Of a stretch of DNA of 32,000 nucleotides, positions 14,586-31,456 are shown one piece after another (the first letter of the stretch is position 1; the number at the start of each line of letters is the position of its first letter). Both the position numbers and the translations under genes were made by a program. This stretch comes from Ignicoccus islandicus DSM 13165 (lineage in GTDB: Archaea > Thermoproteota > Thermoprotei_A > Sulfolobales > Ignicoccaceae): assembly GCF_001481685.1 (NCBI RefSeq), contig NZ_CP006867.1:270001-302000 (forward strand), written 5' to 3'. A model generated the notes under the pieces. That model ran no database searches. It was not told the origin of the DNA and saw only the letters and a program-made list of their open reading frames with translations.

Positions 14586-16010
14586 TCAACTCTTACTAAT
14601 TTTCTCTTTAATCATTTCCCTTACTAATTTGGGATCTGCCCTTCCCTTAGTAGCCTTGAGCACTTGACCTACGAGGAAGTTGATTGCTTTTTCGTTCCTC
14701 TTGGCGTCCTCTACGGCTTTCGGATTGCTTTTAATTACTTTTTCCACGATTTTTTCAATTTCACTAACGTCTTTAATTGCGCGAAGTCCCTTTTCTTTAG
14801 CTATAGCTTTCGGTCTTTTACCTGTCTTCAGTACCTCCGGGAATACGATCTCCTTAGCCTGCTTCCAAGTAATTTCTCCTTTATCAACCATGTTGAACAG
14901 TTCCTTCAAATACCCTGCATTTAAACCCTCGCCAATGTCCATACCGAGCTCCTTGACCCATCTCAAGTACTCGACTACGAGGAAGTTCGCTACCCTAATT
15001 GGGTCGCCTACAGTTTTAGCGACTTCTTCGAAGGTATCCGCTAATTTCTTGGAAGAGGTCAGTACCTTAGCTAAATATTCGCTAACTTTATACTCTTTTA
15101 CGAATCTCTCTGCCCTCTCGTCCGGTAGTTCAGGCAATTCCATTCTAATTCTCTCTATCATTTCCTCACTTACGTAATATGGCGGTATGTTAGGCTCCGG
15201 CATGTATCTGTAATCTGCCTCAAATTCCTTACTTCTAGATGGTATTGTAACCCTCTTCGAAGAGTCCCAGTGTCTAGTTTCCCTCTCAACCTTCCCGCCT
15301 TGCTTTATCAAAGTAGTTTGCCTCACTATTTCGAACGTTAAGGCCTTCTCCACTTCTTTAGGGGAGCCTATGTTCTTTACTTCGACCCTCTCTCCACCGG
15401 GAACGCTTACGTTAGCGTCTGCCCTCATTGCGCCTTCCAAGGAACAATCGCAAATGCCTAAGTGCTCCAATACGCTCCTGAGCTTTTCGAGGAAGGCCCT
15501 CGCTTCCCTCGGACTCTCCATATCGGGTTCCGTCACTATTTCCAGCAACGCTACACCGGATCTATTGTAATCTACCAATACGTACCTCGACGCGAAGCCT
15601 TGAGGCCAAACGAGCCTCCCGGGATCTTCCTCTAACTGAACCCTTCTTATTCTGACTACCTTTTCCTTTCCATCGACGTTTATCGGTATGTAACCACCGG
15701 TACAAATTGGAGAAGAGCCTAGCTTGGTGAATTGCGAGATTTGGAATCCCTTAGGTAGATCGGGGTAAAAGTAGTGTTTCCTTGCGAACACCATCTTTTC
15801 GCTTACTTTACCCTTTAAAGCCAGACATAGAGAAACTGCCATTTCAACGGCCCTTTCGTTGAGAATAGGTAACGCACCGGGCAACCCCAAGCAAACTGGG
15901 CAGACGTTAGTGTTAGGCGGCTTGTCCCTGTAATCGCTAGGACAAGAACAGAAGAGCTTCGTTTTTAATGACGTTAATTGAACGTGGACTTCGAGCCCTA
16001 TGGTCGCCAT
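14586..16010 (-). CDS. gatB: aspartyl/glutamyl-tRNA amidotransferase subunit B (GatB)
   Basis: The N-terminal GLEVHVQL...KLFCSCP and later VCPVCLGLPGALP are GatB signatures. The protein is 474 aa and carries a C-terminal GatB/YqeY tail (NFLVGQVLKATKGRADP). Confidence 0.95.
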   Translation of the reverse strand: MATIGLEVHVQLTSLKTKLFCSCPSDYRDKPPNTNVCPVCLGLPGALPILNERAVEMAVSLCLALKGKVSEKMVFARKHYFYPDLPKGFQISQFTKLGSSPICTGGYIPINVDGKEKVVRIRRVQLEEDPGRLVWPQGFASRYVLVDYNRSGVALLEIVTEPDMESPREARAFLEKLRSVLEHLGICDCSLEGAMRADANVSVPGGERVEVKNIGSPKEVEKALTFEIVRQTTLIKQGGKVERETRHWDSSKRVTIPSRSKEFEADYRYMPEPNIPPYYVSEEMIERIRMELPELPDERAERFVKEYKVSEYLAKVLTSSKKLADTFEEVAKTVGDPIRVANFLVVEYLRWVKELGMDIGEGLNAGYLKELFNMVDKGEITWKQAKEIVFPEVLKTGKRPKAIAKEKGLRAIKDVSEIEKIVEKVIKSNPKAVEDAKRNEKAINFLVGQVLKATKGRADPKLVREMIKEKISKS

Positions 16011-16054
16011 TGAGATCCAAGCCGTAAGAGAGGGAGGAAAGGAGGAGTAAAAAG

Positions 16055-17635
16055 CTACTTCTTTCTAAGAGAAAGGACTAGGAGGGCCAGACCTATTAGC
16101 GCCACTACCGGGCTTCCGTAGTATATTATAGGCGGGTACCAGTAGCCCAACTCTTCTAACGGAAGCCTGCTCCATGGACTGTGGCAATCGACGCACTTCA
16201 AGGACTCCGATACTGGCACGACGCCGTGATCCACGTTCATGTACCTAACCATTTTTATGAATTTGCCAGTAAACGTCAAGTTAGCTACTTGCGCTCCCAT
16301 TTGTACGGCCTTGTTTACGTCTCCGAGCGCGAACACAACGCCGACCTTGATCGGTATTGGTATCCTCTTCTGTTCGTCGAAAGGCACGTAAGCAACGTGT
16401 TCTCTGAAGGGATAGATTTTGCCGTCTTCCTCGCTCCCTACGGGAGCAGCGTATACTATTTCGTTACCGTTCACTGGATCGGGATACAAGTAGGCCTTTC
16501 TTTCCTTGCCGTTCCACCATAGATAAGCGGGCTTCACGTTCTTCTTTAGGACGAGCTTAGGCTCCCATCTACCGAGCTTCTCGTTGAACTCAATGTGTCT
16601 CCAGTCCCTCTCCACGTCTATCGGATACTGTCCGTGAGCTATGTACGGAATGTGGCAAGTCTGGCAAGCTACCTTGTGATGGAAGTTCTCAATAATGAAA
16701 CCGACTATAGGGGCCCTGTGCCTCTCCTTGTGGCAGTCCGTGCAAGCGACCGCTTCAGCTTCCCTAGACCACGTACCTACCGCTTTCGTACCTACTTTAT
16801 GGTCTTCGAACTTATGGCAGTCTACGCAGTGGAGACCTCTAGCCATATGAACGTCGAAGTGAACGGAAACCGTACCCATTAGGTCCGGGCTTAAGTTAGG
16901 TCTCTTGAAGTGCGGGCCTCCACCCGCGAACGCGTGACAAGCGAGGCAGGCGTCCTTAGAAGGCTTCGCAACTATCTTAGCGGCCTTCTCAATAGGGATA
17001 TTGGGTACGTACCTCCATCCCTTTTCGGTCTTAACAACTACTTTCATTCCTTTCTTAACTCCAATTGCCCCTCCTTTGTAGTAGTTTGAGTGACATACGA
17101 GGCAGTCGACGTTCTCCAAGTCCTCCTTGGTAGGAGTTACGCTCGGTATCTTGCCTAGGCTCACTCCGTGACACATGGAGCAGCCAGTAGCGATTAGCTT
17201 GCCCTTCAGTTCTTCTTTTCCGGGTGGAGTTTTCTTTAATACGGCCTTCCCAATGAAGTTAACGGATACGTTTCCGTTCCAGAAGATAGCTCCGCAGAAG
17301 TCGTTGTAGAGCGTTCTACTACCGGCCCAAGTAACGCCTTTTCCAGCTACGTCGTCTACTTGGTTTATCAGTCGATAGTGATAGCTGTGGACTAGGTCCC
17401 TTACCTCCTTCTCGTGACACTTCAAGCACGTCTTAGAACCTTCGTACTTCGTTACGTTGAACTTTTGGAACACTTCCGTGTGATCAGCTATTCTGACTCC
17501 CTTCTCTTCAACGTATTTCCATGCGTCCTCTGCACTGGGGGCGAGCGAACAGAGCTGGGTTCCCACGACGAATATCGCTATGGTGCCGGCGCCTACTAAA
17601 AGTAGTAGAAGACCCAAAAGCGCTTGCATCCTCAC
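16055..17635 (-). CDS. octaheme c-type cytochrome with N-terminal signal/anchor and C-terminal transmembrane helix
   Basis: Eight CxxCH motifs were counted in the translation: CLKCH, CSMCH, CLVCH, CLACH, CVDCH, CTDCH, CQTCH, CVDCH. The N-terminus is hydrophobic (LLGLLLLLVGAGTIAIFVV). The C-terminus has a helix (VVALIGLALLVLSL) followed by RKK. Confidence 0.9.
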   Translation of the reverse strand: MRMQALLGLLLLLVGAGTIAIFVVGTQLCSLAPSAEDAWKYVEEKGVRIADHTEVFQKFNVTKYEGSKTCLKCHEKEVRDLVHSYHYRLINQVDDVAGKGVTWAGSRTLYNDFCGAIFWNGNVSVNFIGKAVLKKTPPGKEELKGKLIATGCSMCHGVSLGKIPSVTPTKEDLENVDCLVCHSNYYKGGAIGVKKGMKVVVKTEKGWRYVPNIPIEKAAKIVAKPSKDACLACHAFAGGGPHFKRPNLSPDLMGTVSVHFDVHMARGLHCVDCHKFEDHKVGTKAVGTWSREAEAVACTDCHKERHRAPIVGFIIENFHHKVACQTCHIPYIAHGQYPIDVERDWRHIEFNEKLGRWEPKLVLKKNVKPAYLWWNGKERKAYLYPDPVNGNEIVYAAPVGSEEDGKIYPFREHVAYVPFDEQKRIPIPIKVGVVFALGDVNKAVQMGAQVANLTFTGKFIKMVRYMNVDHGVVPVSESLKCVDCHSPWSRLPLEELGYWYPPIIYYGSPVVALIGLALLVLSLRKK

Positions 17636-17927
17636 AACAACTTCCCGCTTTAGAGCTTACTGACCAGTCAGAAATATTATGTAGTAAACATTTTCACACC
17701 GAATTTCTCTTTACCTAACCAATTGGTCAATTAGTTAACCCTTTAACGCTGTCAAAAGGGAAACTAGAGCTCCAATTACGGAAGCGATGTAAAACATAGA
17801 AGTTTTGTCGGGCCCATGAGATAAGAATGTCTACACCGTTCGGTACTTCAACTCTTTAAGAAATTCTCAGTCTACTAGCCAAGTATCAATTCAGTAAAGT
17901 AACAATATCGTCGAAGAGCGAATTCCA

Positions 17928-17955
17928 ATATTCCTTAGTCTTAGTCAAGGAATAT
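17928..17955. promoter_or_regulatory. 9-bp inverted repeat (ATATTCCTT / AAGGAATAT) around a tandem TTAGTC-TTAGTC loop, overlapping a TATA-like AATATAT
   Basis: Read directly from the sequence. It lies 28-55 nt upstream of the possible starts (TTG 17983, ATG 18007) of the next + strand gene. Confidence 0.35.
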
Positions 17956-17982
17956 ATGTGAACCTTCTAAACGCTTAGGGTT

Positions 17983-18606
17983 TTGACTAAAAGCGGGGAC
18001 TCTTCAATGTTCTGTTCCTTGGTTCTTTTGCTTCATAACGTTACTTCACATGGCATTACCCTTCAGTATCTCTGGTTCCAGAACAATACGGTGGCGCTTT
18101 CTCTAACGCTTCCAAATCCATGTTACAAAGTAACCGTCTCTAACTCAACCATAAGCGTTGAGAGGTACGGATTCGCTTGCATTCAAGTACTTCGTAGAGA
18201 CGAGATATTTCTTACCGTTAAAGGTAATGCCACGTTTACGTTGAACTACTTAAATGATTCAATTCAGTTCGGCAAAGCGTATAGGTTTTGTGCAAATAAC
18301 TCGGTTAAGCTAATTGATATTCTCAATTATACTAGCAAATTTGTCAATAAGATGCTTGAACTAAAACTACTCTGTCTAGGATACTCTATCCCAGTTAATT
18401 TACCCGGCCCACCTTTCAAAGCGCCTCCGGTAACTAAATGCGATAGCGTAGTTACAGACGGATCCGCTTGGATCTACGTAAGGGGACCACTTTGCACTAG
18501 ACCTATAGAGGTCCTAGTGAAGGCAAAGGTAAGGATTGCGAAGGTTCCAAGCGGAATGGTACCCTATTTAGAGGTCATTGATGTACTTGGGAGATGGCCT
18601 AGATGA
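17983..18606 (+). CDS. hypothetical secreted protein rich in N-glycosylation sequons
   Basis: 207-aa ORF. The start may instead be ATG 18007 (MFCSLVLLLHNV...). I counted seven NxS/T sequons and several Cys. No family recognised. Confidence 0.45.
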   Translation: MTKSGDSSMFCSLVLLLHNVTSHGITLQYLWFQNNTVALSLTLPNPCYKVTVSNSTISVERYGFACIQVLRRDEIFLTVKGNATFTLNYLNDSIQFGKAYRFCANNSVKLIDILNYTSKFVNKMLELKLLCLGYSIPVNLPGPPFKAPPVTKCDSVVTDGSAWIYVRGPLCTRPIEVLVKAKVRIAKVPSGMVPYLEVIDVLGRWPR

Positions 18607-19075
18607 GGTGACGTATCCCTTGGAGCGCCGTTTGAGGACACCGCCCAAGATAAAGGTATTGGAAGCGCTAGGAGCTATAGCTGATGGAAGGGTCGCACCA
18701 ACTTCAGGCGGATTCAAGGTGAGGTCCAGTACTGGTGAGAGGACTTACGAGGTTTGGGTTGATTTGGAAAGAGGCTTAGTTTGTAGTGACGATAACGGGA
18801 CCAAGTTCAGAGGTTACGTAGGATACCCGATAATTGCCGTTCTAATGCTTAAGGGGAAGCTGCCGTTTAATGAAAAGTTAGCCGAAGCCCTTAAAGGGAT
18901 TCCTTGGAAGAAGCTTAATGAAGAGATGAAGAGCTACTCTAAGGTTATGGAGCTAATTTATGCAATGCTAAGGGATAAAGGAATAGATAGGAGCGAAGTG
19001 GATGAATTCGTCAATGAAGTAATTAGTTCCTTGAAGAAACTAAAACTTAAGAAAGTCTGTCCCGAGAATAAGTAG
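18578..19075 (+). CDS. hypothetical protein (165 aa), possibly with a degenerate SWIM-like fold
   Basis: TTG at 18578 is followed immediately by ATG at 18581. The segment YEVWVDLERGLVCSDDNGTKFRGYVGYPIIAVLM has the spacing of a SWIM element but lacks its Cys/His ligands. The C-terminal half is helical. Confidence 0.55.
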   Translation: MMYLGDGLDEVTYPLERRLRTPPKIKVLEALGAIADGRVAPTSGGFKVRSSTGERTYEVWVDLERGLVCSDDNGTKFRGYVGYPIIAVLMLKGKLPFNEKLAEALKGIPWKKLNEEMKSYSKVMELIYAMLRDKGIDRSEVDEFVNEVISSLKKLKLKKVCPENK

Positions 19076-19260
19076 TTTCACCTCTTCGCAACCACTTCTA
19101 TGAACTTTTCCAACAGTTTGTTGTTAGTTTCCAATTGGGCGCTCAGCTTGCCCATGCTCACTTTCAGTTCCTCGATCGAGGTCTCCATTTCACTAAACAT
19201 GGAATAATCCTCGCGCCATGTCTTTGTTGAGGATAAAATTTAGACGAAGTAGAGTTCATT

Positions 19261-19325
19261 GGCTTAATCAATGTTCTTAAAGAGACTCAGAATGATGAAA
19301 AAGGTGAAAAGGCTTAATATGTTTT
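19261..19325 (+). repeat. direct repeat GGCTTAAT(C)A(A)TGTT occurring twice, 50 nt apart, upstream of csx1
   Basis: GGCTTAATCAATGTT starts at 19261 and GGCTTAATATGTTTT starts at 19311, read directly. A second pair, TAATCGA at 19371 and 19381, sits next to the TATA-like CTTATAAT. Confidence 0.5.
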
Positions 19326-19410
19326 AGAGTTAATTATCCAGCCAGCAGAGTTTGCCGAAGCCATAACTTATAATCGAGAATAATCGATAGTAGGAAACGG
19401 ATGATGATGA

Positions 19411-21000
19411 TTGAGCCTGTTGGTCATATCGACATGGGGATTTTCGGGAAGCTGGAAGAGAGTTACTTACCGATTAGACGACCTACGGAAGGTTCTCGAA
19501 ACTCCGTTATCTTCTGAAGTCATTTCATGTAATGTACTGAAACTTTTTAAAGGAGAGAATATAAGGAGAGTAATACTCCTACCGATAACGCTCCTTGATA
19601 CCAAAGTCAACAACTTCGAGGAAGCAGAAGATGTGATACGGAATTCGATTATTGCATCGAATCCTGATGACAATTGCAAGAGAGATTTAGAAGAAATTCT
19701 ACACGATTCCCAAGTAAAAGTAGTCTTGGGTAGTGGGTATTTCCTTTCGAATACAAATCTTAATGAATTTATTGTGCCTTTTAGTAGCGTGTTGTCTGAC
19801 ATATACTTGAAAATATATGAGAGCTTGGAGGAAGCATATAACAATCCAAGGAGCGAGCTCAGAATTATTCTAGATATAACTCACGGCGTTAATTACTATC
19901 CAGTAAGTTTGAGAGCAGTAGTTGAGAAAATGTTAGCAATTATGAGTCATAGGGGAAGAACCAAGTTATACGTTGCTTCGAGCGATCCATTTATATCCTC
20001 ACGTAATAGTCAAAGCAAAGATATTGAAAAAAAGGTACTTAAGTATCACATAATTGAATGGAGAGAATTTCCGAAATCGAAAGTATTTTCGATGACCTCT
20101 AACATCAAACTTAAAAGCATTGTAAGGAGTCGCGACGAATTAAACACTCAACTTAGAGGGCTTAAGAGTATAGTAAAATACATAAAGCTATTAGAGGTCC
20201 CAAGCATCCTTGCGTGGAGTTATCTTAAGTATAAATTATATGAACCATTGAATAAGTGCGATAAAAATAGCATAGATAAGGCTAAGGAACTACTGGAAGA
20301 GATCAAGAAAGAAGCTAAACGGTTTAGTATCGAAGGGAATAAGTTTATTTTCCCAAAGGAATTCGACCCTGAGGGTATATTCGATTTAATATCGTTAATT
20401 GAAATTGGAAGAGCTCTCAGTGACTTAAATGGAAAAATTGAGGATAACCTATACGTAGTAAATCTCAAAGATTTGAAGAGTTATAATGAAAGGTATAGCG
20501 AATACATGGAAGCAGTATCTAAACATCTTTGGAAGAAGGAATTCGATGATTTGGTGAGAGCAGTTGAGCTATACCGAGAAAGGATACTTGATGCTAATGA
20601 AGCCCTAGAGGTAATTCCACTTAATGGTATCGAAAAGCTAGAACTTGATAATATTTTGATAGACAAGTTAAAGAAAATGGAAAAGAGGAAGATCCAAAGA
20701 AAGTTAGAGGAACTACGTAGTCTAATCTCGATGGGGTGGCTTCCATACTCGTTCCTTAAAGTTGAAGCTAGAAAGAAGAACGGTGAAGATAAGGACGAGA
20801 GCAAGGACAAGGAATACTTACTGAAAGAACTTATAAAAGAAGCGCTATGGTGGGCTGTCTGGGATAACTCACTTAACGAGAATTACGTAAGAAACTTCAT
20901 AGCTCATGCAGGCCTAGAGAAGAACCTAACTTTCGTGAGTAGCGAGAGCGTTGGTTACTATATTCCATACCTCGAGCAAATAATAAGTATTATGAAATGA
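19411..21000 (+). CDS. csx1: Csx1-family CARF/HEPN protein (cyclic-oligoadenylate-activated RNase type)
   Basis: The N-terminal LLVISTWG.. strand is typical of the CARF Rossmann-like fold. The C-terminal RNFIAHAG (nt 20890-20907) is the Csx1/Csm6 HEPN R-N-x3-H motif. It sits directly upstream of the cmr genes. Only TTG/CTG starts are available after the in-frame TGA at 19408. Confidence 0.8.
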   Translation: MSLLVISTWGFSGSWKRVTYRLDDLRKVLETPLSSEVISCNVLKLFKGENIRRVILLPITLLDTKVNNFEEAEDVIRNSIIASNPDDNCKRDLEEILHDSQVKVVLGSGYFLSNTNLNEFIVPFSSVLSDIYLKIYESLEEAYNNPRSELRIILDITHGVNYYPVSLRAVVEKMLAIMSHRGRTKLYVASSDPFISSRNSQSKDIEKKVLKYHIIEWREFPKSKVFSMTSNIKLKSIVRSRDELNTQLRGLKSIVKYIKLLEVPSILAWSYLKYKLYEPLNKCDKNSIDKAKELLEEIKKEAKRFSIEGNKFIFPKEFDPEGIFDLISLIEIGRALSDLNGKIEDNLYVVNLKDLKSYNERYSEYMEAVSKHLWKKEFDDLVRAVELYRERILDANEALEVIPLNGIEKLELDNILIDKLKKMEKRKIQRKLEELRSLISMGWLPYSFLKVEARKKNGEDKDESKDKEYLLKELIKEALWWAVWDNSLNENYVRNFIAHAGLEKNLTFVSSESVGYYIPYLEQIISIMK

Positions 21001-21089
21001 CGCAGAATCTTTGCATACTGCTCAAATGAGCTTGAGATAAGTCGAAAGTTGAATAACGCGGTTCATATACAAATCATGGGGATGAGTTC

Positions 21090-22607
21090 GTGGATTTAAC
21101 CCAGGAGGTTACAAGGAATTTCAATACATCTTTGTGGAGAGAATTAGGGAAGTTTACGAACTATACCCCCTTGATGGTGGGGGATTGGAAAGGCGATACC
21201 TATACTAAGGTTGGGAACAATAGAATTGTTACTGGAATACCTCGAGCTCAAGCACTCTTAAGTAGGGCACGTTATGCTACTACTTTAGCCCTAAGTTCCT
21301 ATTTAACGAATCCAAAGAGTTTCAATGAAGTATACGAAAAGGTGAAAGTAAAGAGTACAGTCGGAGCAATACCACTTCTATGTTTAATATACGGCTGTTC
21401 AGAGCCTCCCTTTTCATCACTGTTTAAGTTATCCCTCTCTGTTAATGTCAAGAAATGGAATGCATGGAATCCCGCTTACGCGAAGGCGAATAGATATCAC
21501 GCAATAATTTCGAGAGGCGAAAGAAGATACTCAAGGGGTCTAAAAAGTCCTTTGATTCCTGGAGCTATTGAAGTGGAAGTAAAGTATTTAATTGATAGTA
21601 ACAGAGCCAAAGCTTTAGGGTTGTCGGAAGATATTATAGATAGCATAAGAAACATCTTCGAATATAGCCTTAAAGTTGCACTGGTAGTCTTGGGTTTAGG
21701 AAAGGGGTCTAGTAGGGGGTTCGGTAAGTTCTGGTATAATGATAGAGGTCCTGCATGTAGAGATATTAAGGAGTTACTTGACGGATTGTTACTAGAGATC
21801 GAACATATACTTAAATACTTAATGAGTAAAGATCTACTAGTCAGTAAAGACATTCTCCTCAAACCTCTCAGTACAGAAACTATTGAAAGGAATAGAATGA
21901 TCCCCTTCTTCAAGAAGCCAGATGAACTTTGTAGTAATAAATTGTTCGTACGGAACGCGAGTGATTACGGAAGGAAAATAGAACTAATAGCTAAAGCTGT
22001 GTTAAAAGCCAATTGGAAAAAGGCGTCTCGTAGGAAGGGGTCTGGAAGCAACTTCCATACCTGGCCTCTAGGTCTACCCCGATCGTCTTCGATAAAGTGT
22101 ACTTGCAATGGTAAAGTGTATGAAAAAAGGAAGTATGGTTACTTGGTTTCCACAATAGCCATAGCTGATCTATATTGTGAAAATTTCTGTAAGTCTTTCG
22201 AAAGCGTAAGCGCAACTGATGCCAGAAGGGTCTCAATGATACATTTCGTTCCAACGTTAGACGGAATAGTAATACTTCCCCTTTTCGACTATTCCTTACT
22301 CCCTTTAATAAAGGGGGATAAGGGGAGGACCATTTATCATGTAAGTGGTAAATTCATGAAACATGAGAAGGTAAAAATACATTGCGACAGAACGTTTGTA
22401 AAACTAAAGAACGTTCTTATGAATAATAAACCCAAATCATCCTATCGAGGAGGTAATTGTTCTAAACCAACTTACGGTATATCTTTACCCCCGAACTCCC
22501 ATGGATTATTCCAAACCGAACCTAAGAGTATCGAAGATGCTTACGTAACAGCGCTCAACGCAGCTTTGCAATGGGTAATTTACATACTCAAGAATCCGCT
22601 GCTTTAA
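21090..22607 (+). CDS. cmr1: Cmr1-like RAMP protein (two RRM/RAMP halves)
   Basis: GTG start. The N-terminus has YTPLMVGDW ... GIPRAQALLSRARY, resembling the Cmr1 TPLf.gG ... iRG.lRfW pattern. It has a glycine-rich loop (LGLGKGSSRGFGKFW). The second half has WPLGLPRSS ... ARRVSMIHFVP, resembling fGLP ... R.aSPl. Location in a cmr cluster supports the call. Confidence 0.6.
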   Translation: MDLTQEVTRNFNTSLWRELGKFTNYTPLMVGDWKGDTYTKVGNNRIVTGIPRAQALLSRARYATTLALSSYLTNPKSFNEVYEKVKVKSTVGAIPLLCLIYGCSEPPFSSLFKLSLSVNVKKWNAWNPAYAKANRYHAIISRGERRYSRGLKSPLIPGAIEVEVKYLIDSNRAKALGLSEDIIDSIRNIFEYSLKVALVVLGLGKGSSRGFGKFWYNDRGPACRDIKELLDGLLLEIEHILKYLMSKDLLVSKDILLKPLSTETIERNRMIPFFKKPDELCSNKLFVRNASDYGRKIELIAKAVLKANWKKASRRKGSGSNFHTWPLGLPRSSSIKCTCNGKVYEKRKYGYLVSTIAIADLYCENFCKSFESVSATDARRVSMIHFVPTLDGIVILPLFDYSLLPLIKGDKGRTIYHVSGKFMKHEKVKIHCDRTFVKLKNVLMNNKPKSSYRGGNCSKPTYGISLPPNSHGLFQTEPKSIEDAYVTALNAALQWVIYILKNPLL

Positions 22608-22656
22608 TTTGTCCACACAACGTAAATGACTGAAAAAATCTTTATTTAGAGTCAGC

Positions 22657-22663
22657 TTTATAA
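22657..22663 (+). promoter_or_regulatory. TATA box candidate (TTTATAA) upstream of the P-loop NTPase ORF
   Basis: GCTTTATAAGTAG lies 35-41 nt upstream of the GTG at 22698, within an A/T-rich intergenic spacer. Confidence 0.35.
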
Positions 22664-22697
22664 GTAGAATATAGATCTTCTCTATAGGGTTACTAAA

Positions 22698-23327
22698 GTG
22701 GCCAATAACGAACGCTTTAAAAAGTCTTTTACACCATGGATTCCGGATAAGGACACGTTCAAATGTCTCGAAAATACACGAGAAGAGTTACGTGAATTAA
22801 TTCAAGCAATACGTGACTTTTACGATGATTCAAGGGAGTACTTTAACGAATATATCGGGACGGGTGAATCAGAAACAGAAAGACTGATCAATAACTATAA
22901 AAAGTTATGCAGATACATCGAGTCAAGATCCAACGCCATATTCGTACATGGTCCGCCCGGAAGTGGAAAATCCACAATAATGGGTCACGCCTTGTGGTAT
23001 CTCTCAATTAATGAGGATTCGAGGTTTTCTGAACATCCGATTAATGTCCCGTTATATCTCCTCGGGATTCTTGATATAAGCTTACTACCCCCAAACGATA
23101 CCCTAATGCAATGGCTCTTTACACTGTTAGAAGAAAATACTAGGGAATTGATCGAACGTTACAATAAACTTGGCTATACTCGAGAAGAAGATATAGAGAA
23201 TATGAAAGAACTCAAAAGACATCTTAATAGTTTGAAGAAATATTTCCCATTCTTTGAAACGGGAATTGTAGACCTAGCAAAGTTTTTCTCGACGGATATA
23301 GAGGAATTGGAAGAGGTTGTTCAATAA
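22698..23327 (+). CDS. P-loop NTPase, apparently truncated (Walker A only clearly visible), embedded in the cmr cluster
   Basis: GTG start and Walker A VHGPPGSGKST. The N-terminal ~85 aa and the C-terminal part are helical. I could not identify a clear Walker B or arginine finger before the TAA at 23325. The same frame stays open for 44 more codons after that stop. Confidence 0.6.
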   Translation: MANNERFKKSFTPWIPDKDTFKCLENTREELRELIQAIRDFYDDSREYFNEYIGTGESETERLINNYKKLCRYIESRSNAIFVHGPPGSGKSTIMGHALWYLSINEDSRFSEHPINVPLYLLGILDISLLPPNDTLMQWLFTLLEENTRELIERYNKLGYTREEDIENMKELKRHLNSLKKYFPFFETGIVDLAKFFSTDIEELEEVVQ

Positions 23328-23541
23328 ATTCTACGCTCAGGGTACGATATAAGACCTACAGAGTTCCTGAAGGCCCTAATTTTCTGCAGAATAATTTCAT
23401 TAGATCCTTTTACGATATGTCTATTTACCATAAGGAGTGAAGGCCTCGACAAGGTCGCATGAACCTACATCAATATTCACTTAAAATGATATAATAGACC
23501 TTTGGTCAAGATTACATCATATCAATTCCTTAAGGACCATT

Positions 23542-24000
23542 TTGATCAATGCAATGTATCCTTCAACTCTATTAATAAGTGAATTGAATATCGATCTCAA
23601 ACGTTTGCTCGGAACGCCGACTTACGTACCTGAACACATAATAAACCTTGCAAGAGAATACTTCCGGTTTTATAACAAACACTTTGACAGGTTAGATCTC
23701 ATAGAATTTATCACTAAGGATGGACAAATTGAGAGAACCAAAATTAAACGAATACTAGAAACGCTTAGATCCAAAATGATTAGTGAACTAAAAAAGAGAA
23801 ACATAGTAATAGAATCTTGCCCTACCTCCAACATGGTAATTACGTGGCAATTAGGTGAACATCCACTTGAGTGCTTCCTCAAAGAGGGCCTTAGAGTAGT
23901 AATTGGTACTGATGATCCAATGGTCTTGAATACCGATATACTATCGGAACTGGCTCTAGCTAAAGCATTAAGAACCCGTAGTTTAAATTTAACATTATAA
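23542..24000 (+). CDS. adenosine/AMP deaminase-family C-terminal fragment (probable gene remnant or degenerate domain)
   Basis: IVIESCPTSN ... EHPL..FLKEGLRVVIGTDDP matches the late motifs of the adenosine deaminase family (E.CP.SN, HP, and NTDDP with the Zn/catalytic Asp pair). The ORF is only 152 aa with a TTG start. The N-terminal HxH and the HAGE and RIGHG motifs are absent. Confidence 0.55.
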   Translation: MINAMYPSTLLISELNIDLKRLLGTPTYVPEHIINLAREYFRFYNKHFDRLDLIEFITKDGQIERTKIKRILETLRSKMISELKKRNIVIESCPTSNMVITWQLGEHPLECFLKEGLRVVIGTDDPMVLNTDILSELALAKALRTRSLNLTL

Positions 24001-24068
24001 AATACTCAGCAATAGGATAAGCATTATAACGTCTGAGAATTAGGAGTAACCTCGGGTGTAATCTCTCA

Positions 24069-24938
24069 TTGAAAAACTTTGAGGATAAAGTTCTGCCAGC
24101 ATTAATGAGTGCAATTACCCACGTTCACGTTGGTTCTGGAAAAAGCTACGGTGATGTAGATCAACCAATAATTAGGGATCCCCTTGGAGTACCTTTCATA
24201 CCCGGTTCTTCCATAAAAGGAGCTCTCAAATCGAAGTTCCTAATTGAGAAGAATTGCGTAGAGAAGTGTAATGGGGACTGCGAGCAAGAGGAGAAATGTG
24301 AAGAGGAATGTTATCAAGTGTATTGCCTTTTCGGACCTGAAAGAGGAGATAAGGGGGCATCTAGAATAGTTGTTGCAGACTTCTATCCTCTTTTCGTTCC
24401 TATGCCATCGCTAAGTAGCGGATACGTTTACGTAACATCGAATTTCCTTTTGCAATATGCAGAAACTCTTAACGTTAAATTGGTAGAAGGGAAAGGAGAG
24501 AGTGAGGAAATATTCATTGGAACCCAGAAGATCAAAGCTGAAGTGGTTAGAATCAATGAACGTATCATAGAGATTCATCCATTTCTAAAGAATTTCTATA
24601 GAAAGGCGGACGGTAAGGGATACGTAACGGTGTACAAGATCAACGACAAGCATCTATTCCACCTCATAGATAGAGCGCTATTAAGACTCACGAGAGTTAA
24701 GATAGAGAGGACTACGAAGACTGCCGAACGTAATAAACTTTGGACTGAGGAATACCTACCTCACGGAACCATTCTGGTGGGCGCCTTCGTATACAGACCT
24801 TGGAGAAATGCTTGCTGCGAAAAATGCAAACATTGCGAGAACCTCTTAGAAGAGTTGAATGACATATTCTTCGTAGTTGGTGGTAAGGAAACGATTGGCA
24901 AGGGCTTGGCTAGAATCAAAGTAATGGAGGGAGCATAG
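24069..24938 (+). CDS. cmr4: Cmr4 (Cas7-family RAMP, backbone/target-cleaving subunit)
   Basis: ITHVHVGSGKSYGDVDQPIIRDPLGVPFIPGSSIKGALKS matches the Cmr4 tPlHvGsG...D.Pv.rd...P.ipgSSlKGalR pattern. It also has LFG ... IVVADFYPLFVPMPS ... YVYVTS and a C-terminal GGKETIGKG loop. TTG start. Confidence 0.85.
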   Translation: MKNFEDKVLPALMSAITHVHVGSGKSYGDVDQPIIRDPLGVPFIPGSSIKGALKSKFLIEKNCVEKCNGDCEQEEKCEEECYQVYCLFGPERGDKGASRIVVADFYPLFVPMPSLSSGYVYVTSNFLLQYAETLNVKLVEGKGESEEIFIGTQKIKAEVVRINERIIEIHPFLKNFYRKADGKGYVTVYKINDKHLFHLIDRALLRLTRVKIERTTKTAERNKLWTEEYLPHGTILVGAFVYRPWRNACCEKCKHCENLLEELNDIFFVVGGKETIGKGLARIKVMEGA

Positions 24939-24939
24939 A

Positions 24940-25578
24940 ATGAGCGAAACGATAGCGACGGTAGCTAATCCCATGAAGTTAGCGCTAACTCACATTCTGA
25001 AAATAGAACGCCTTAGGAAGGAGTACCTTGAGAAACAGTTAGTGGAGGACAGCGAAAAGCTTGATCTCGGGGGATTCGTTACTCGAATGAAGCAATATCC
25101 GTCGCTCTTGATGAGTTCCGGTTTAGTAACTTCAGTAAGCTTCTATATATCGAAAATTGAAAAAGAGAAAGGATCCGGTGAAGCATTGAGACTTCTTTAC
25201 GAATACCTCACTACTAATCGCGATGAAAGTCATGAAGACGAAGAAAGATCAGTACTTGAAAAGTTGACTACTAGCGAATCAGTGAGGAAAGCAATTCTTA
25301 GTGAAATGAAGAGCGACGCGAAGGGGTACCTAATTGCATCAGCATTGCTAATAGCAGCTATAAGCGAGTTCTCACGGGCGATAGGCCTTGAATTGCCCGA
25401 TGAGGGAGAATTCCTAACGAAATTCATTGAATTCTTAAAGGAATTACTTGAGGACACATCGTTAGAAAATCTAATTCTATTAGAAAACTTGATGAGGGAG
25501 TACTCCATTGAGGTAAAGAGGCTTGTAGAGGCTTATAAGTCAATTGTATGGGAGGGTAAAGATAATGGAAAGGCCTGA
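24940..25578 (+). CDS. cmr5: Cmr5 (Cas11-type small subunit)
   Basis: All-helical 212-aa protein. Its ATG is one nt after the cmr4 stop. KQYPSLLMSSGLVTSVSFYISK resembles the Cmr5 lp.li...GL.qalafl motif. It lies between cmr4 and cmr6. Confidence 0.75.
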   Translation: MSETIATVANPMKLALTHILKIERLRKEYLEKQLVEDSEKLDLGGFVTRMKQYPSLLMSSGLVTSVSFYISKIEKEKGSGEALRLLYEYLTTNRDESHEDEERSVLEKLTTSESVRKAILSEMKSDAKGYLIASALLIAAISEFSRAIGLELPDEGEFLTKFIEFLKELLEDTSLENLILLENLMREYSIEVKRLVEAYKSIVWEGKDNGKA

Positions 25579-26476
25579 CTTAAAGGCGGAAGAAATGTAT
25601 GTAAGGGCAGTCCTCAGCGGAGGAGGTACTCTGGACGAGCGTTCCAAGAAGGCTATAGTAAGAATAATTACAGGCAACGTTTCATTTCTCCAGGAGATGC
25701 TTAAGCTATCGAAAGAGAACATGGAAGCCATCGAAACGGGATACGAGAAAGCCGGATATATGGTCGGATCAATAAATGTGGTCCTCAAGTCAGAGGGCTT
25801 AGTGGGTATAGGTTCTGGCGCTTTTAAGTCAATCTTTGAGGTTGGCCTAAATATCGATCCTATCTTAGGTTTACCCTACTATCCGGGATCTGGGATTAAA
25901 GGCGCAGTGAGATCGTTCATCGAAAGCTTCTTACCTTCGGGGAAAGGAATTGAATACTTGGAGGAGATATTTGGTTCAAGTAGAGCTAATAAGGGTGAGG
26001 AGGTCAGCTCAAGTGATGGTTCGAGTGGAGCCGAAGGCATGATAGTGTTCTCAGATATGTATCCAATAGGTTGCAAGAGTGGTGGGTGCTCGATATATAC
26101 ACCACTAGTAATTACTCCACATTACTTCAAAGGCGGTAAGGTAGTTGATACGGAGTTAGACGTTCAGCCAGTCCCCGTTGTACACATAGGTATATCAAAG
26201 GACTTGGTATTCAAATTAATAATAGCTATTAGGAAGGACTTGAAAGAACGATTAATGAAAAACCTGAAAGGGATATTCGAAATGATCAAGAAAAGCGATG
26301 GAACGACCCCTCTTTTCAAAGGAATTAGAGAAGATCCCTTAATCGCGATAGGTTTGATTACTATATATACTCTAAATATGGGTATCGGAGCGAGATCGGC
26401 TAAAGGCTATAACTTGTTCGAACCGTATTCGGGTCCCCTTGCATTCAAAGTTAGTAAGTACGTTCTAAGGAGGTAA
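25565..26476 (+). CDS. cmr6: Cmr6 (Cas7-family RAMP)
   Basis: GIGSGAFKSIFEVGLNIDPILGLPYYPGSGIKGAVRSF and the C-terminal GIGARSAKGYNLF glycine-rich loop support the call. ATG 25565 is preceded by GGAGG at 25551, whereas the ORF track opens at TTG 25544. It overlaps the cmr5 end by 14 nt. Confidence 0.8.
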   Translation: MERPDLKAEEMYVRAVLSGGGTLDERSKKAIVRIITGNVSFLQEMLKLSKENMEAIETGYEKAGYMVGSINVVLKSEGLVGIGSGAFKSIFEVGLNIDPILGLPYYPGSGIKGAVRSFIESFLPSGKGIEYLEEIFGSSRANKGEEVSSSDGSSGAEGMIVFSDMYPIGCKSGGCSIYTPLVITPHYFKGGKVVDTELDVQPVPVVHIGISKDLVFKLIIAIRKDLKERLMKNLKGIFEMIKKSDGTTPLFKGIREDPLIAIGLITIYTLNMGIGARSAKGYNLFEPYSGPLAFKVSKYVLRR

Positions 26477-26481
26477 TAGGT

Positions 26482-29400
26482 ATGGACTGCAATGGATTAC
26501 TAAAAAAGAAAATTGTTGCATTGCTTCACGATACACCCGAGAAAACGTGGCTAATGTACACTCGCACAAGACACGAAGATTACGCTAAAAATAGAATAAG
26601 AGAGCTTTACGGAGAAGATTACTTAGAATACCTTAGGGATGTAAAAAAGTACGACGTTATCTCCTCTACTATTGATAGATGGGTCATACCATCGCGTACG
26701 ATAATACCTCGAGTCGTCAGGTTACTCAACCCGTTCGATCCAAGCTTTTACTACGAAGTTGATATAGGACAGATTGATAAAGAAAAAGTGAATGAGTATT
26801 GGCGTAGCCTCAGAGAGTGCTTAGGTAAGTTAAGTAACGATAGAGAAAGATACCATGTTCAATACGCACTCATGGAACTGTTATGGTATAAGATAGTGGG
26901 AAGTCCTCTCCCGGCAGATACTAGGTTCCCTACGCATACCGTTTTCGATCACGTTTACTCGACGGCGTCTGTAGTTAATATCTACCACGAAGGGAAGTTC
27001 ACAGGTTTCTTAGTAGAGGTTGATATACCGGGTATTCAAAACTTCGTGAGTGGTGGACGAAGACCCGGAGATTGGTGGATTAGAAGTTGGCTGATTTCCG
27101 CGATAACGTGGTATTTAATAAAGGATCTCGTCTGGGAGTTCGGACCAGATATACTATTGAGCCCGAGCGCTCGGTACAATCCCTTCTATTATTCGACCAT
27201 TTTAGAAAAAATTCCATTTATCAGTAAATGCATCAGTTCAGATAATCTAGATGAGGCAGAGAAGAAATTTGTTAAAAGTCTCATTACGCCCGATCAACCG
27301 TTGATGCCAGCTACGGTGACCTTGTTACTTCCTAAGTGCTCTCTAGAGTTCATATTAAGAGATGTTTCTACCTCAGATACCTATGATGCGATAAGGCAGT
27401 ATTTTAAGCAGTATTTTAAGAAGAGATTGGAAGAGGTATGGAAAAATATAGTTAACGAGCTACAGAGAAGCCTAGATAGAAAGTTGAATGACGATAAAGC
27501 TTGGCAGAATCAATTTGAAGGAGTCAGATATTGCTTAGAAAGTTGTAACGACAGTATAACGTATGAAGACCTCAAGAGAATAATAGAAAGAGCGGAAAAG
27601 CCTCCCTTCGAAATTAGAGTTACAGTCATAGATATAGAAAAAGCCTACGAAGACTTTCGCAATATTTTCAATTCTCAAAAAAGCGAAATTAGGAATAGAA
27701 TAAACCAACGTTTAAATGGAACGAAAAGGAAACTGGAAATAGGGAAAGACGTCTTCCCTTATTCTAAAGACATTGATGATGTAATGAACGATTTAGAAAA
27801 GAAACTATTCTTTCACTGGCTCCTCACTAAAAAATATCCCGAGGAGGTGCATAGAGTAAAGAGTATTAGTATAGACCCATTGCTTCTAGATAGTTGGACG
27901 CTCGAGATCACTAACGCTAGGTATAGTAAGTATAGCGAGAAAACGGCGCTTACGTGCACTTGCGGTAGACCAGCTGCAATCCATAATCCAAGGGACGAAC
28001 CCACCTCAATCCTCAGATCACACGAGGCCCTTTGTCCATACTGCTTCGTCCTAAGATTGCTTCAATATAATACTGACGCTCTAACTCGTCTGGTGCCTTC
28101 CGGAGAAATTAGAGTGCCGAAGATAGTGACCTCCACCTTGGCAGCTCTACCCGAATTGATTGAATGGTTCCTTAACGATAAAGAAGTGATTGAGTTCCTA
28201 GATCAAGAAGGTAATAAAATAGAGGTTAAAGGTGATCAACTACGATATTTGCTATTAGAGACATTGAAGCAACATAATCCTCCGATACGTAGTACTTCGT
28301 TTCCTCACGGTTACAATACTCGCTTTCACTTAAACCTTGAAGAGCTGGTAGATGAACTGCAAAGGATCGATAAGATTACATCACTAATAGTAGTTCCTTC
28401 TAACCTTAAAGACATGCTTTCCAATCCTTCTGAACAACAGTTGTACTTGAAGGTATCGTTAAGTAATAAAACAAGTAAGCATTTACGCGTACTTAACTCC
28501 TTAAATAAGTATATAGTGATGATAAGGGCTGACGCCGATAATATGGGTGATCTCAAAAGAGGTGCATTAGGTTATAGTACTAGAGATTACTTCAACAAGG
28601 TTTTCGAACATCTCAAGATTTACAGTGTTAATGATAAAGATGCAGAACTATACAGTGCGGCAAGTAGTATTATAGAAAGCGTACTGGAAAGGTTTTATGA
28701 AAGTTACCCAAGGGAGGTTTCTAAGGACTCTAAGAAGAATGACGGCTCACAGCAACTCCCTACCACGTTAGTCACGCCAACGTACTTATCCCAGCTTTCT
28801 TATTCGCTGATGATAGAAGCTATACTGGATAAGGAAATAATCGAAAGTAACTATGGCATAGTAATATTCTCTGGAGGAGACGATCTACTAGCCCTCCTTC
28901 CAGCTAGGAGCGTCTTTAGTAAATCTCCTATACCCCCTCTTAGAGATTTGGAATCACTACTCTCTAACGAATTGCTAAACCTAGTAAAGAGGTTCTACTA
29001 CTCTCCAGCGCTCTGGGTTTGGTGGCTAACCAGACTCAATCACTGGGGATTGCTTAAGGGAATAGATGGATTCAGACATACTAAAAGCTTCTTTGCTCCG
29101 GCCTTAGTAGCCTATGGGCGGAGCTACGGGATAGCCGTGAGACATTACCGTGATCCCTTGGCCAAGGTCTTTGAAGACGTGAAAGATCTAGAAGATAAAG
29201 CGAAACATCAGAAAGAAGAGGTCACTAAAGATAAAGTAAAAGATGGAGTAAGCGTAAGCTACGGCCGATTAGGGGCGGAAGGCGTTGCTCTGTCGAATAC
29301 ATTAGGCACGAAGGAGAAGCGCGATTTACGAGAGCGTAACTCCTTGGGTCCTTTCGTGGCTACCTTTGCATCTCTCCATTACCAAGGTTTAAGCAATAAT

Positions 29401-29649
29401 TACTATTACGATATCATAAGAGAATTGCAAAGACACCTAGATCTATATGAGGAGGATCGATACCTTATAAGCGATCCATTCATGGTCCTGCTAAGGTACA
29501 TAATTAAAAGAAATATACGTAACGAAGGAGCGAAATCACAGCCCCCCTTGCTGAACCTTAAAGAGACGTTAGAATTTTTGGAATCAGTGAAAAACGACCT
29601 TTTCGATTTGTTGAAGTTCGGCTTTATGTGGCACAAATCGATGAGGTGA
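26482..29649 (+). CDS. cas10: Cas10/Cmr2 large subunit with HD motif and GGDD cyclase palm
   Basis: 1055 aa. The N-terminal ALLHDTPEK (HD at nt 26527-26532) resembles the LHDPPDK opening of Cmr2. It has a Cys cluster CTCG...CPYC (treble-clef-like). The first palm has IRADADNMGD. GGDD is in FSGGDDLLAL at nt 28873-28884. Confidence 0.9.
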   Translation: MDCNGLLKKKIVALLHDTPEKTWLMYTRTRHEDYAKNRIRELYGEDYLEYLRDVKKYDVISSTIDRWVIPSRTIIPRVVRLLNPFDPSFYYEVDIGQIDKEKVNEYWRSLRECLGKLSNDRERYHVQYALMELLWYKIVGSPLPADTRFPTHTVFDHVYSTASVVNIYHEGKFTGFLVEVDIPGIQNFVSGGRRPGDWWIRSWLISAITWYLIKDLVWEFGPDILLSPSARYNPFYYSTILEKIPFISKCISSDNLDEAEKKFVKSLITPDQPLMPATVTLLLPKCSLEFILRDVSTSDTYDAIRQYFKQYFKKRLEEVWKNIVNELQRSLDRKLNDDKAWQNQFEGVRYCLESCNDSITYEDLKRIIERAEKPPFEIRVTVIDIEKAYEDFRNIFNSQKSEIRNRINQRLNGTKRKLEIGKDVFPYSKDIDDVMNDLEKKLFFHWLLTKKYPEEVHRVKSISIDPLLLDSWTLEITNARYSKYSEKTALTCTCGRPAAIHNPRDEPTSILRSHEALCPYCFVLRLLQYNTDALTRLVPSGEIRVPKIVTSTLAALPELIEWFLNDKEVIEFLDQEGNKIEVKGDQLRYLLLETLKQHNPPIRSTSFPHGYNTRFHLNLEELVDELQRIDKITSLIVVPSNLKDMLSNPSEQQLYLKVSLSNKTSKHLRVLNSLNKYIVMIRADADNMGDLKRGALGYSTRDYFNKVFEHLKIYSVNDKDAELYSAASSIIESVLERFYESYPREVSKDSKKNDGSQQLPTTLVTPTYLSQLSYSLMIEAILDKEIIESNYGIVIFSGGDDLLALLPARSVFSKSPIPPLRDLESLLSNELLNLVKRFYYSPALWVWWLTRLNHWGLLKGIDGFRHTKSFFAPALVAYGRSYGIAVRHYRDPLAKVFEDVKDLEDKAKHQKEEVTKDKVKDGVSVSYGRLGAEGVALSNTLGTKEKRDLRERNSLGPFVATFASLHYQGLSNNYYYDIIRELQRHLDLYEEDRYLISDPFMVLLRYIIKRNIRNEGAKSQPPLLNLKETLEFLESVKNDLFDLLKFGFMWHKSMR

Positions 29650-30716
29650 ATGCGTTGATAGTATTGGAGCCACTTAGCTTTGTAAGTTTCAGAAAGCCTG
29701 GACCTTTCGGTATAACTCAACGAGGACCTCTTTCCACGAGTTCCACCTATTTCATGAAGACGACTACATTAATAGGGGCACTAGCCTATTTAGCTTATAC
29801 CCAGAACGTTGAATGTAGTAATAAGGAAGGTCTCTTTGAAGCAACTAGGGAATGCCTAAGACGATGTTTTAGAGGAAATCTGAGGGGACCCTATGTTGTT
29901 TGTAAGGATCAACCCTCGTTATTCTTCGCTGAAGAAAAGCTGTTGGACTTGAACATCTTGTTCGAAAGGTGGGATGATATTAGAGTGGACCTAGCAATGC
30001 TCCTCAACGGTAAAGTTGTCCTAAAAAGGAAAAAGAAGGGACTAATCGAACATTACTTGAGCGACGAAGAACGAGATTGCATCCCTAAAATCTTCGAGAA
30101 ACACGCTACTGGAAAAACGCGAAGGAAATTAATTTCTCATCAGTTTTCCAATAAGTTGCAGAAGTTTAGCAAGAATAGCGAATTTATCTTTGTCAGAGAA
30201 AGGCTTTACGCTAGGGGCCTCAAGTTCTTTCTCGAAGTTAATGAATTCAACGAGCAGTGTCTCTATGATACGCTAATACCTTTGGGGGGTGACGGGGGTC
30301 TTGCGAAAGTAGAAATCGTAACCGGAAATCCAATAGAAGAAAACCTCAGGAAATTATGGGGCAACGAGTGCTGGGAAACATGTAAGGGGAAGCGATCGGT
30401 AGTAGTAGTGATCTCTCCCTTAATACTAGAATCTAGTTCTAACTCTAAATGTGATTATAAGGATTACAAATGCCACTTCCAAGAGATCCTTGAAGTCGAG
30501 GAAATAGCACCTCTCTACGATAGATATTCTGTTAAGGCATATCCTCTAGGCTGGGACTTAAGGAAGGACCGTCCACGACCATTCGTTCCCACAGTAACTC
30601 CTGGATCCGCTGTAGTTGGAACGCTGAAGAAATCGCCAAGAGACGTCTATTGGGAAGGCGTAGGTCTCTTTAAAGATATCGGTTTTGGAACAGTAATCCC
30701 ATTACCTTTTGACTAA
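29628..30716 (+). CDS. cmr3: Cmr3 (Cas5-family RAMP)
   Basis: The N-terminal LEPLSFVSFRKPGPF resembles the Cmr3 P.dpl.fRdgrPf pattern. It also has PLGGDGG and a C-terminal GFGTVIPLPF. It overlaps the cas10 end by 22 nt; an alternative GTG start is at 29646. Confidence 0.8.
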   Translation: MAQIDEVNALIVLEPLSFVSFRKPGPFGITQRGPLSTSSTYFMKTTTLIGALAYLAYTQNVECSNKEGLFEATRECLRRCFRGNLRGPYVVCKDQPSLFFAEEKLLDLNILFERWDDIRVDLAMLLNGKVVLKRKKKGLIEHYLSDEERDCIPKIFEKHATGKTRRKLISHQFSNKLQKFSKNSEFIFVRERLYARGLKFFLEVNEFNEQCLYDTLIPLGGDGGLAKVEIVTGNPIEENLRKLWGNECWETCKGKRSVVVVISPLILESSSNSKCDYKDYKCHFQEILEVEEIAPLYDRYSVKAYPLGWDLRKDRPRPFVPTVTPGSAVVGTLKKSPRDVYWEGVGLFKDIGFGTVIPLPFD

Positions 30717-30723
30717 TTGCTCC

Positions 30724-30741
30724 CCTCCCACTTCTGGGAGG
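30724..30741 (+). terminator. hairpin CCTCCCA-CTTC-TGGGAGG 8 nt after the cmr3 stop (possible 3' end structure)
   Basis: The 7-bp GC-rich stem was read directly. No adjacent oligo-T tract, so a terminator function is not established. Confidence 0.3.
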
Positions 30742-31440: not shown

Positions 31441-31456
31441 GCTGCCAAAGCGTATC

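Follow-up and report, generated by a model that had tools for sequence, protein, structure and literature searches.

Inactivated remains of a probable RADAR-like ATPase–deaminase gene pair in a type III-B cmr operon of Ignicoccus islandicus

Remains of two genes between cmr1 and cmr4

A 32,000-nucleotide (nt) stretch of the genome of the archaeon Ignicoccus islandicus DSM 13165 (NZ_CP006867.1, positions 270,001 to 302,000), referred to in the following as the window, includes a type III-B CRISPR operon of cmr genes. Positions 22698–24000, between the cmr1-like gene and cmr4, hold two open reading frames (ORFs) that do not encode Cmr subunits: ORF1, with an ATP-binding P-loop, and ORF2, related to adenosine deaminases. 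We find that this segment very probably represents what is left of an inactivated module of two genes, an ATPase gene of ≈840–880 amino acids (aa) followed by a deaminase gene of ≈690–770 aa, which resembled the RADAR defense system and was encoded within the cmr operon in this archaeal type III-B lineage. The original prediction for the region, made from the sequence without database searches, had proposed either a new accessory effector arrangement or the wreck of one; for the copy in the window it is the wreck, with a stop codon, a lost Walker B motif and a large deletion. As Gao et al. reportedly described in 2020, RADAR pairs an AAA+ ATPase, RdrA, with an adenosine deaminase, RdrB.

The loci compared with the window came from two metagenomic contigs (L005 and L006, the latter ENA ERZ27262679 k141_408069), a metagenome-assembled genome (MAG; L007), Ignicoccus pacificus DSM 13166 (L008, CP006868.1), which was found by a scan of one genome per species, and a further locus, L010.

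ORF1 (EYM_01750; WP_075049387, annotated as an "ATP-binding protein") encodes 209 aa on the forward strand (22698–23327), from a GTG start to a TAA stop at 23325–23327, and has a Walker A motif, GPPGSGKST, at 22950–22976. Its domain matches were at the P-loop level only (AAA_16, E = 2e-5, under the cut-off). An exhaustive phmmer search of 1.84 billion representative proteins returned only four relatives, three of them 838–876 aa long and the fourth a 338-aa fragment; ORF1 covers the first ≈166–209 residues of the three long proteins. When the long ATPases were aligned to the window by tblastn, the homology ran straight through the ORF1 stop codon, with residues 5–282 of the L005 ATPase matching 22734–23435 (E = 6e-22) and residues 24–300 of the L007 ATPase matching 22746–23447. 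The continuation of the pseudogene in the same frame (23328–23447, forward strand) encodes ILRSGYDIR and FCRIISLDPFTICLF, and residue alignment with the long ATPases showed that ≈36–51 codons are gone between these two segments. The part missing from the window contains Walker B in every relative (LLLIAIDNIE, LLLFAFDNVE, LITLIIDNVED, IAYILDDLD). The window copy has no functional ATPase core: it retains Walker A, but the frame meets a stop codon before the place from which Walker B (hhhhDN/D in the relatives) has been lost. Judged from these alignments, ORF1 is the N-terminal quarter of an RdrA-like ATPase gene of 838–876 aa, stopped by a TAA nonsense codon.

ORF2 (EYM_01755; 152 aa, 23542–24000, forward strand, TTG start) carries the motifs ESCPTSN (23812–23832) and GTDDP (23905–23919). 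It matched Pfam A_deaminase (PF00962) with 45.7 bits, above the gathering score of 27 (E = 6e-12), over model positions 227–293 of 330 only, a stretch that forms the C-terminal end of the fold. Residues 23–144 were 41% identical to residues 564–682 of the 689-aa L005 deaminase (E = 6e-29), and the same identity, 41%, was found to the last 107 residues of a 725-aa deaminase. By tblastn, deaminase homology begins at 23491–23494, upstream of the TTG codon; the C-terminal remnant extends over 23491–24000 (forward strand), and ORF2 is the part of it that follows the first start codon. The alignments identify ORF2 as the last ≈150 residues of an RdrB-like deaminase of 689–768 aa. Intact relatives retain DHHVH, SFHAGE, DRIGHG, ESCPTSN and GSDDP, and the window lacks a complete deaminase active site, as ORF2 has ESCPTSN and GTDDP only, without the HxH, HAGE and GH motifs. 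What is left comprises strands 7–8 of the TIM barrel, with one of the four zinc ligands and neither the catalytic Glu nor the catalytic His. A word-index search with ORF2 in 5.8 billion clusters found nothing but ORF2 itself. The ORF positions, the Walker A motif of ORF1 and the two motifs of ORF2 are all as the original prediction gave them, and its placement of ORF2 in the adenosine deaminase family is borne out by the Pfam match.

The end points of the ATPase and deaminase tblastn alignments place a deletion junction at 23448–23490. Over these ≈45 nt between the end of one homology and the start of the other the reading frame changes, and the junction translations show a stop in the ATPase frame (TGA, 23460–62) and another in the deaminase frame (TAA, 23482–84). 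Lost at the junction are ≈540–590 ATPase codons and ≈535–586 deaminase codons, or ≈3.2–3.5 kb. The decay comprises three lesions: a TAA nonsense codon at 23325 in the ATPase gene, an in-frame loss of ≈36–51 codons that removed Walker B, and a deletion of ≈3.2–3.5 kb that fused the ATPase gene at codon ≈300 to the deaminase gene at codon ≈535–590 in a different frame. With Walker B gone from ORF1, and with the catalytic Glu and His and all but one of the zinc ligands gone from ORF2, neither is predicted to be capable of the ancestral reaction.

The single repaired product of 22698–24000 that had been envisaged does not exist, since the remains of two genes are joined there by the large deletion; a concatenated "repaired" ORF1–ORF2 protein gave no match in a word-index homology search, and a single frameshifted fusion gene was ruled out because the segment derives from two separate genes. 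The housekeeping adenosine deaminase Add (PF00962) has the ESCPTSN and GTDDP motifs in common with ORF2. It differs in that the relatives of ORF2 are twice as long and their alignment with Add is limited to the last ≈65 residues and the HAGE/GH region, while ORF2 itself represents 20% of the fold only. A fragment of a housekeeping add gene was rejected, as the relatives are RdrB-like and partnered with an ATPase.

The sequence of the window was identical in two assemblies from independent read sets, L001 over 12698–32000 and L003 over 20971–32000; in a third, L002, the sole difference was a 1-nt indel in csx1. Because independent assemblies reproduce the sequence, the stops in 22698–24000 are not sequencing errors, and an artefact was ruled out by the identity of two independent assemblies across the remnant region.

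Intact gene pairs in other archaea

Full-length counterparts of both genes were found side by side in L005, L006, L007 and L008. In each, an ATPase gene of 838–876 aa (split into 338 and 473 aa in L008) is followed in the same orientation by a deaminase gene of 689–766 aa, the two overlapping or lying 5–14 nt apart. The order cmr1-like, ATPase, deaminase, cmr6 is common to I. pacificus, L005 and L006. In L006 the genes run cmr4-cmr5-cmr1-ATPase-deaminase-cmr6, with csx1 upstream; in I. pacificus, cmr4-cmr5-cas10 are on one strand, and a 190-aa ORF, the cmr1-like gene, the ATPase, a 747-aa deaminase and cmr6 are on the opposite strand. The gene after the deaminase was identified as Cmr6 in L005 and L006 (TIGR01898, E = 1e-22 and 1e-23, respectively). 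The gene before the ATPase was identical over its full length to the cmr1-like gene of the window at 40% in L005 (526 aa) and 37% in L006 (500 aa), and the cmr1-like gene of I. pacificus also falls within this 37–40% range. The pair or its remains are embedded among cmr genes in four loci (the window, L005, L006 and L008), a small sample, and the connection with cas loci on which the original prediction depends is upheld by the intact relatives inside cmr operons.

Start and stop codons of the ATPase and deaminase genes overlap (ATGA, GTGA or TTGA) in L005, L007 and I. pacificus. Overlaps of the same kind join the deaminase gene to cmr6 in L005 and I. pacificus, i.e., in two of the three intact cmr-embedded loci, and this sharing of frames at the sequence level suggests translational coupling. 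G+C spans 43–55% among the embedded loci, whose Cas proteins share 27–40% identity with those of the window. Because the pair occupies the same slot in loci that have diverged this far, it looks ancestral to this Cmr lineage, and the arrangement looks old, not a recent insertion. A scan of viral contigs gave no match, and the ATPase had none in plasmids.

Some further features of these loci were observed. The part of the L006 contig covered by the analysis (L006:1–19081) holds csx1, cmr4, cmr5, the cmr1-like gene, ATPase, deaminase and cmr6, and neither cas10 nor cmr3 occurs within these 19 kb; the contig continues for another 12.7 kb. The I. pacificus ATPase (L008:7161–9641) is split into ORFs of 338 and 473 aa in the same frame. 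The 42 nt between them contain two TAA codons in frame as well as a GGAGGTG motif that lies 7 nt ahead of the second ATG. The gene may be truly split, or it may have entered on the decay that is complete in I. islandicus. The Cmr1-like protein of the lineage (window 21090–22607; L005:1113–2693; L006:8415–9917; L008:5543–7096) is unusually long, at 500–526 aa, with a cysteine-rich C-terminal half; it has no NCBIfam match and has so far been found only in loci with the ATPase–deaminase pair or its remnant. On two unrelated contigs, toxin–antitoxin-like gene pairs of the HEPN/nucleotidyltransferase (MNT) type lie a few kb from the ATPase–deaminase pair (L006:5679–6408; L007:7030–7714).

Relationship to RADAR

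For each of the four full-length deaminases examined, NCBIfam and PADLOC both gave RdrB as the best family (E = 1e-13 to 1e-18). A deaminase profile searched against PDB sequences matched the RdrB structures 8fnv/8fnw over ≈400 residues (E = 5e-12), whereas ordinary adenosine deaminases were matched over the last ≈65 residues only. Among plasmids, tblastn with the I. pacificus deaminase gave five matches, of which the sole functionally annotated one was rdrB and the other four were hypothetical proteins. Fold comparisons with Foldseek pointed in the same direction. A low-confidence model of the deaminase (predicted local distance difference test, pLDDT, 37) had RdrB as its only significant matches (E = 2e-6 to 3e-4; next, 0.38). 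For a model of the ATPase (pLDDT 47, ≈70 for residues 13–285), the top 16 PDB matches were all RdrA, over ≈305 columns (best E = 6e-5), and the next family was BrxC at 0.02. No CARF or SAVED domain was detected by Pfam in the four full-length deaminases or in the ATPases, in agreement with the ATPase plus CARF-less deaminase originally described; no sensor domain was recognized.

Like RADAR, the archaeal module consists of two genes, ATPase first and then deaminase, with no CARF domain. The adjacent and co-oriented large genes of the RADAR arrangement are present in L005, L006, L007 and L008, while the window keeps stumps only. The sizes are also similar (838–876 and 689–768 aa, compared to about 800–900 and 800 aa for RADAR), and the intact archaeal deaminases share with RADAR large insertions ahead of a C-terminal deaminase core with the full set of catalytic motifs. 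The proposal that the arrangement matched neither Cad1 nor RADAR has to be given up in its second half, as the full-length deaminases are best matched by RdrB in sequence and fold, the best fold matches of the ATPase model are RdrA, and the pairs have the RADAR gene order and sizes. There are clear differences, however. The archaeal pairs, in archaeal hosts, are very distant from RADAR: against the RdrB family (NCBIfam NF041744, cut-off 800 bits), the intact deaminases scored 50–67 bits and ORF2 17.8 bits, and the ATPases had no RdrA family match. The archaeal pair lies inside a cmr operon, where it overlaps the cmr6 start codon in two loci, and the copy in the window is a deletion remnant without predicted catalytic capacity. 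These comparisons lead us to regard the ancestral pair as distantly RADAR-like, and not as an effector of the Cad1/CAAD type; it falls outside the curated RdrA and RdrB equivalog families.

A degenerate-motif scan also retrieved a bacterial RADAR relative, L009:5668–13524, in a Clostridia MAG (JAFTKN010000012.1). It has an 856-aa RdrA-like gene (RdrA match, 1e-17), a 922-aa deaminase gene and then a 713-aa gene without a Pfam match, which may be a third component.

The cmr locus of the window

The genes of the window are arranged in the order csx1, cmr1-like, ATPase remnant, deaminase remnant, cmr4, cmr5, cmr6, cas10/cmr2, cmr3, all on the forward strand. Profile matches confirmed the neighbors that had been assigned to the two non-Cmr ORFs, with the cmr1-like gene and cmr4 on either side and Csx1 close by. 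The csx1 gene (19411–21000) encodes CARF and HEPN domains (Pfam Csx1_CARF, 1.6e-34; Csx1_HEPN, 5e-6), and is followed by the 505-aa cmr1-like RAMP gene (21090–22607; PADLOC Cmr1, E = 2.5e-8). Downstream of the remnants are cmr4 (24069–24938, TTG start; NCBIfam Cmr4, 2e-46), cmr5 (24940–25578), cmr6 (25544–26476; NCBIfam Cmr6, 3e-21), cas10/cmr2 (26482–29649; NCBIfam Cas10/Cmr2, 7e-42, with GGDD and HD motifs present) and cmr3 (29628–30716; Pfam Cmr3, 9e-6). For cmr5, the NCBIfam match (1e-5, 25.7 bits) was slightly under the 27.9-bit cut-off, and the Pfam Cas_Cmr5 match (28 bits) was above its 21-bit cut-off. The set from cmr4 to cmr3 (24069–30716) is apparently intact. The Cmr/Csx1 system as a whole looks intact from its motifs, because Cas10 shows GGDD and HD and Csx1 shows CARF and HEPN; by its domain content, Csx1 is the intact cyclic oligoadenylate (cOA)-dependent accessory effector of the locus. 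No CRISPR array was found within the 32-kb window.

In L002 (run ERR9765778), the 1-nt indel splits csx1 (L002:6715–8303) into ORFs of 213 and 302 aa; the gene is intact in the window and in the two other assemblies, and the indel reflects either variation in the population or a mistake in assembly. In the ORF list, cmr5 and cmr6 overlap by 35 nt, and cas10 and cmr3 by 22 nt. Logan gene calls used alternative start codons, giving a cmr6 of 303 aa, with the overlap reduced to 14 nt, and, in one of two calls, a cmr3 of 353 aa that no longer overlaps cas10. About 2 kb upstream of the cas region, adjoining gatB, is a gene on the reverse strand for a multihaem cytochrome c of 520–526 aa (16055–17635), which matches Pfam Cytochrome_cB and, faintly, Cytochrome_C7, Cytochrom_c3_2 and MtrC/MtrF-type domains.

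The two TATA-like elements reported on the flanks are real and uncommon, each being one of four in the 32 kb. TTTATAA (22657–22663, forward strand) lies 35 nt upstream of the GTG start, in the 90-nt gap that separates the cmr1-like gene from the ATPase remnant, and ATTATAA (24023–24029, forward strand) is 46 nt before the TTG start of cmr4. Both are plausible promoters by sequence and position. Their interpretation as the sign of an inserted cassette was not supported, given the same slot in diverged loci and the absence of a G+C anomaly. Related loci also have a gap of 64–83 nt before the ATPase, and the gap is therefore part of the operon structure and no sign of insertion. G+C is 0.36–0.38 over 22400–24200, compared to 0.34–0.41 in csx1/cmr1 and 0.40–0.43 in cmr4–cmr6, so that no compositional anomaly marks an insertion over 22400–24200: the values are within the csx1/cmr1 range, though below that of cmr4–cmr6.

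Alternative explanations

The remnants might be more than debris. That ORF1 and ORF2 form a functional miniature accessory module, in which a small NTPase and a small protein derived from a deaminase would cooperate with the Cmr complex, appears highly improbable to us. Both ORFs are uninterrupted, at 209 and 152 aa, and annotated as genes in the deposited genome, and a rare TATA-like element precedes ORF1, but the homology to long proteins continues through the stop and across frames, Walker B and the HxH, HAGE and GH motifs kept by all intact relatives are gone, and no protein alike in both size and sequence was found among 1.84 billion representatives or 5.8 billion clusters. We regard it as improbable, too, that the stumps are enzymatically dead and the region is kept for another reason, such as internal promoters for cmr4–cmr3 or a small neofunctionalized protein, for example an N-terminal fragment of RdrA. 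The TATA-like heptamers at 22657 and 24023 fit such a role, as does the presence of cmr4–cmr3 downstream with almost no other intergenic space; yet the element at 24023 is outside the remnants, and a recent deletion explains the retention of 1.3 kb equally well. The idea that ORF2 derives from a CARF-fused deaminase of the Cad1/CAAD type, with ORF1 as an unrelated ATPase, is scarcely credible. Its appeal is that the PADLOC CARF_ADA model matches ORF2 (E = 3e-8), and that Cad1/CAAD proteins likewise belong to the adenosine deaminase family, occur alongside type III(-B) cas genes and Csx1 (PMC11645235; PMC12669630; PMC12993439), notably with type III-B systems (PMC11645235; PMC12993439), and presumably share the ATP-to-inosine triphosphate (ITP) chemistry by analogy. 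However, the CARF_ADA match is to the deaminase part only (positions 484–561 of 605), the closest relatives are proteins of 689–768 aa without CARF that score better against RdrB than against the CARF_ADA model, and in L005, L006, L007 and L008 the deaminase always follows an ATPase of the ORF1 type, a separate large protein in place of a cOA sensor.

Even if the segment is the remains of a RADAR-like pair, the pair may have been a mere neighbor of the Cmr genes, as in any defense island, and the window would then hold an ordinary dead defense gene pair; we consider this just as easily right as wrong. RADAR functions on its own in bacteria (PMC9994260), the window has an intact Cmr without the pair, and L007 and L010 show no cmr genes in the available flanks. 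Against this, three diverged loci have the pair at one and the same place within the operon, not next to it, and in two of these loci the deaminase and cmr6 are linked by start/stop overlaps. A more specific proposal is that the intact pair (I. pacificus, L005, L006) is a CARF-less effector arm of type III-B, in which recognition of target RNA by Cmr turns on an ATP-to-ITP assembly. We put this forward tentatively, as possible though rather doubtful. The in-operon position and the frame overlap with cmr6 speak for a link between Cmr and the pair; the pairs without visible cmr neighbors and the intact Cmr of I. islandicus suggest that each is able to work alone.

Several observations weigh against the interpretation of the segment as the wreck of a cmr-encoded RADAR-like module. 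None of the full-length ATPases matched NCBIfam NF041743, the model of RdrA (cut-off 600 bits), at E ≤ 0.01, and ORF1 itself gave E = 0.08; hhalign of the ATPase with RdrA returned a probability of 22%, and the ATPase profile found generic P-loop matches only in PDB. With pLDDT values of 47 and 37, confidence in the AlphaFold models is low and the fold matches are indicative only, and all scores are far under the equivalog cut-offs of RdrA and RdrB. No more than three intact loci with the pair among cmr genes are known. L007, in a MAG of 60% G+C, and L010, beside a ParA-like gene, have no cmr genes in the available flanks, from which it follows that the module can probably also stand alone; in L010 the gene upstream of the 768-aa deaminase is a 454-aa ORF that may be truncated by the start of the contig and has no detected similarity to the ATPases. 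Finally, both stumps hold long open frames, ORF1 with a promoter-like element, and may have a residual or new role.

Implications

A RADAR-like pair in a type III locus was not described in any text found by a full-text literature search, which covered open-access papers and preprints only, and the word "deaminase" is absent from a 2018 survey of type III accessory genes. The association of a RADAR-like module with Cmr appears to be unreported. The window copy is a pointer to a very rare, unannotated archaeal clade of RADAR-like pairs built into cmr operons, which standard defense finders would miss because there is no RdrA match and the RdrB score is far below the cut-off. In the deposited genome, the annotation of EYM_01750 and EYM_01755 should read pseudogene fragments.

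By extension from RADAR (PMC9994260) and Cad1 (PMC11645235), the intact module would act in abortive infection: on sensing an infection, the ATPase would license its partner, and the deaminase would convert (d)ATP to (d)ITP, leading to growth arrest. The module would be co-transcribed with the Cmr complex. If Cmr does turn on the ATPase–deaminase assembly, it could do so through RNA products, by direct docking via the unusual 500-aa Cmr1 or Cmr6, or by a nucleotide signal. By analogy, a precedent for plugging RADAR into another defense system is provided by the RADAR-like modules linked to Kongming KomBC (bioRxiv 10.1101/2024.12.20.629578), in which the pair is possibly a sensor or signal generator; there the partner is the KomBC NADase, the hosts are bacterial, and no Cas proteins are involved.

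In I. islandicus, the ATPase–deaminase arm would have been lost while Cmr and Csx1 stayed intact. The repeated decay, complete in I. islandicus and possibly starting in I. pacificus with its split ATPase, suggests that, in the presence of Csx1, such an arm carries a cost or can be dispensed with. The trigger of RADAR is an open question (PMC11645235, discussion), and Cad1/CAAD has established ATP-to-ITP conversion as a defense output used by type III systems. These two subjects would meet in a RADAR-type deaminase that lacks CARF and is wired into Cmr: if true, it would constitute a new class of type III accessory effector and provide a defined trigger for a RADAR-type machine.

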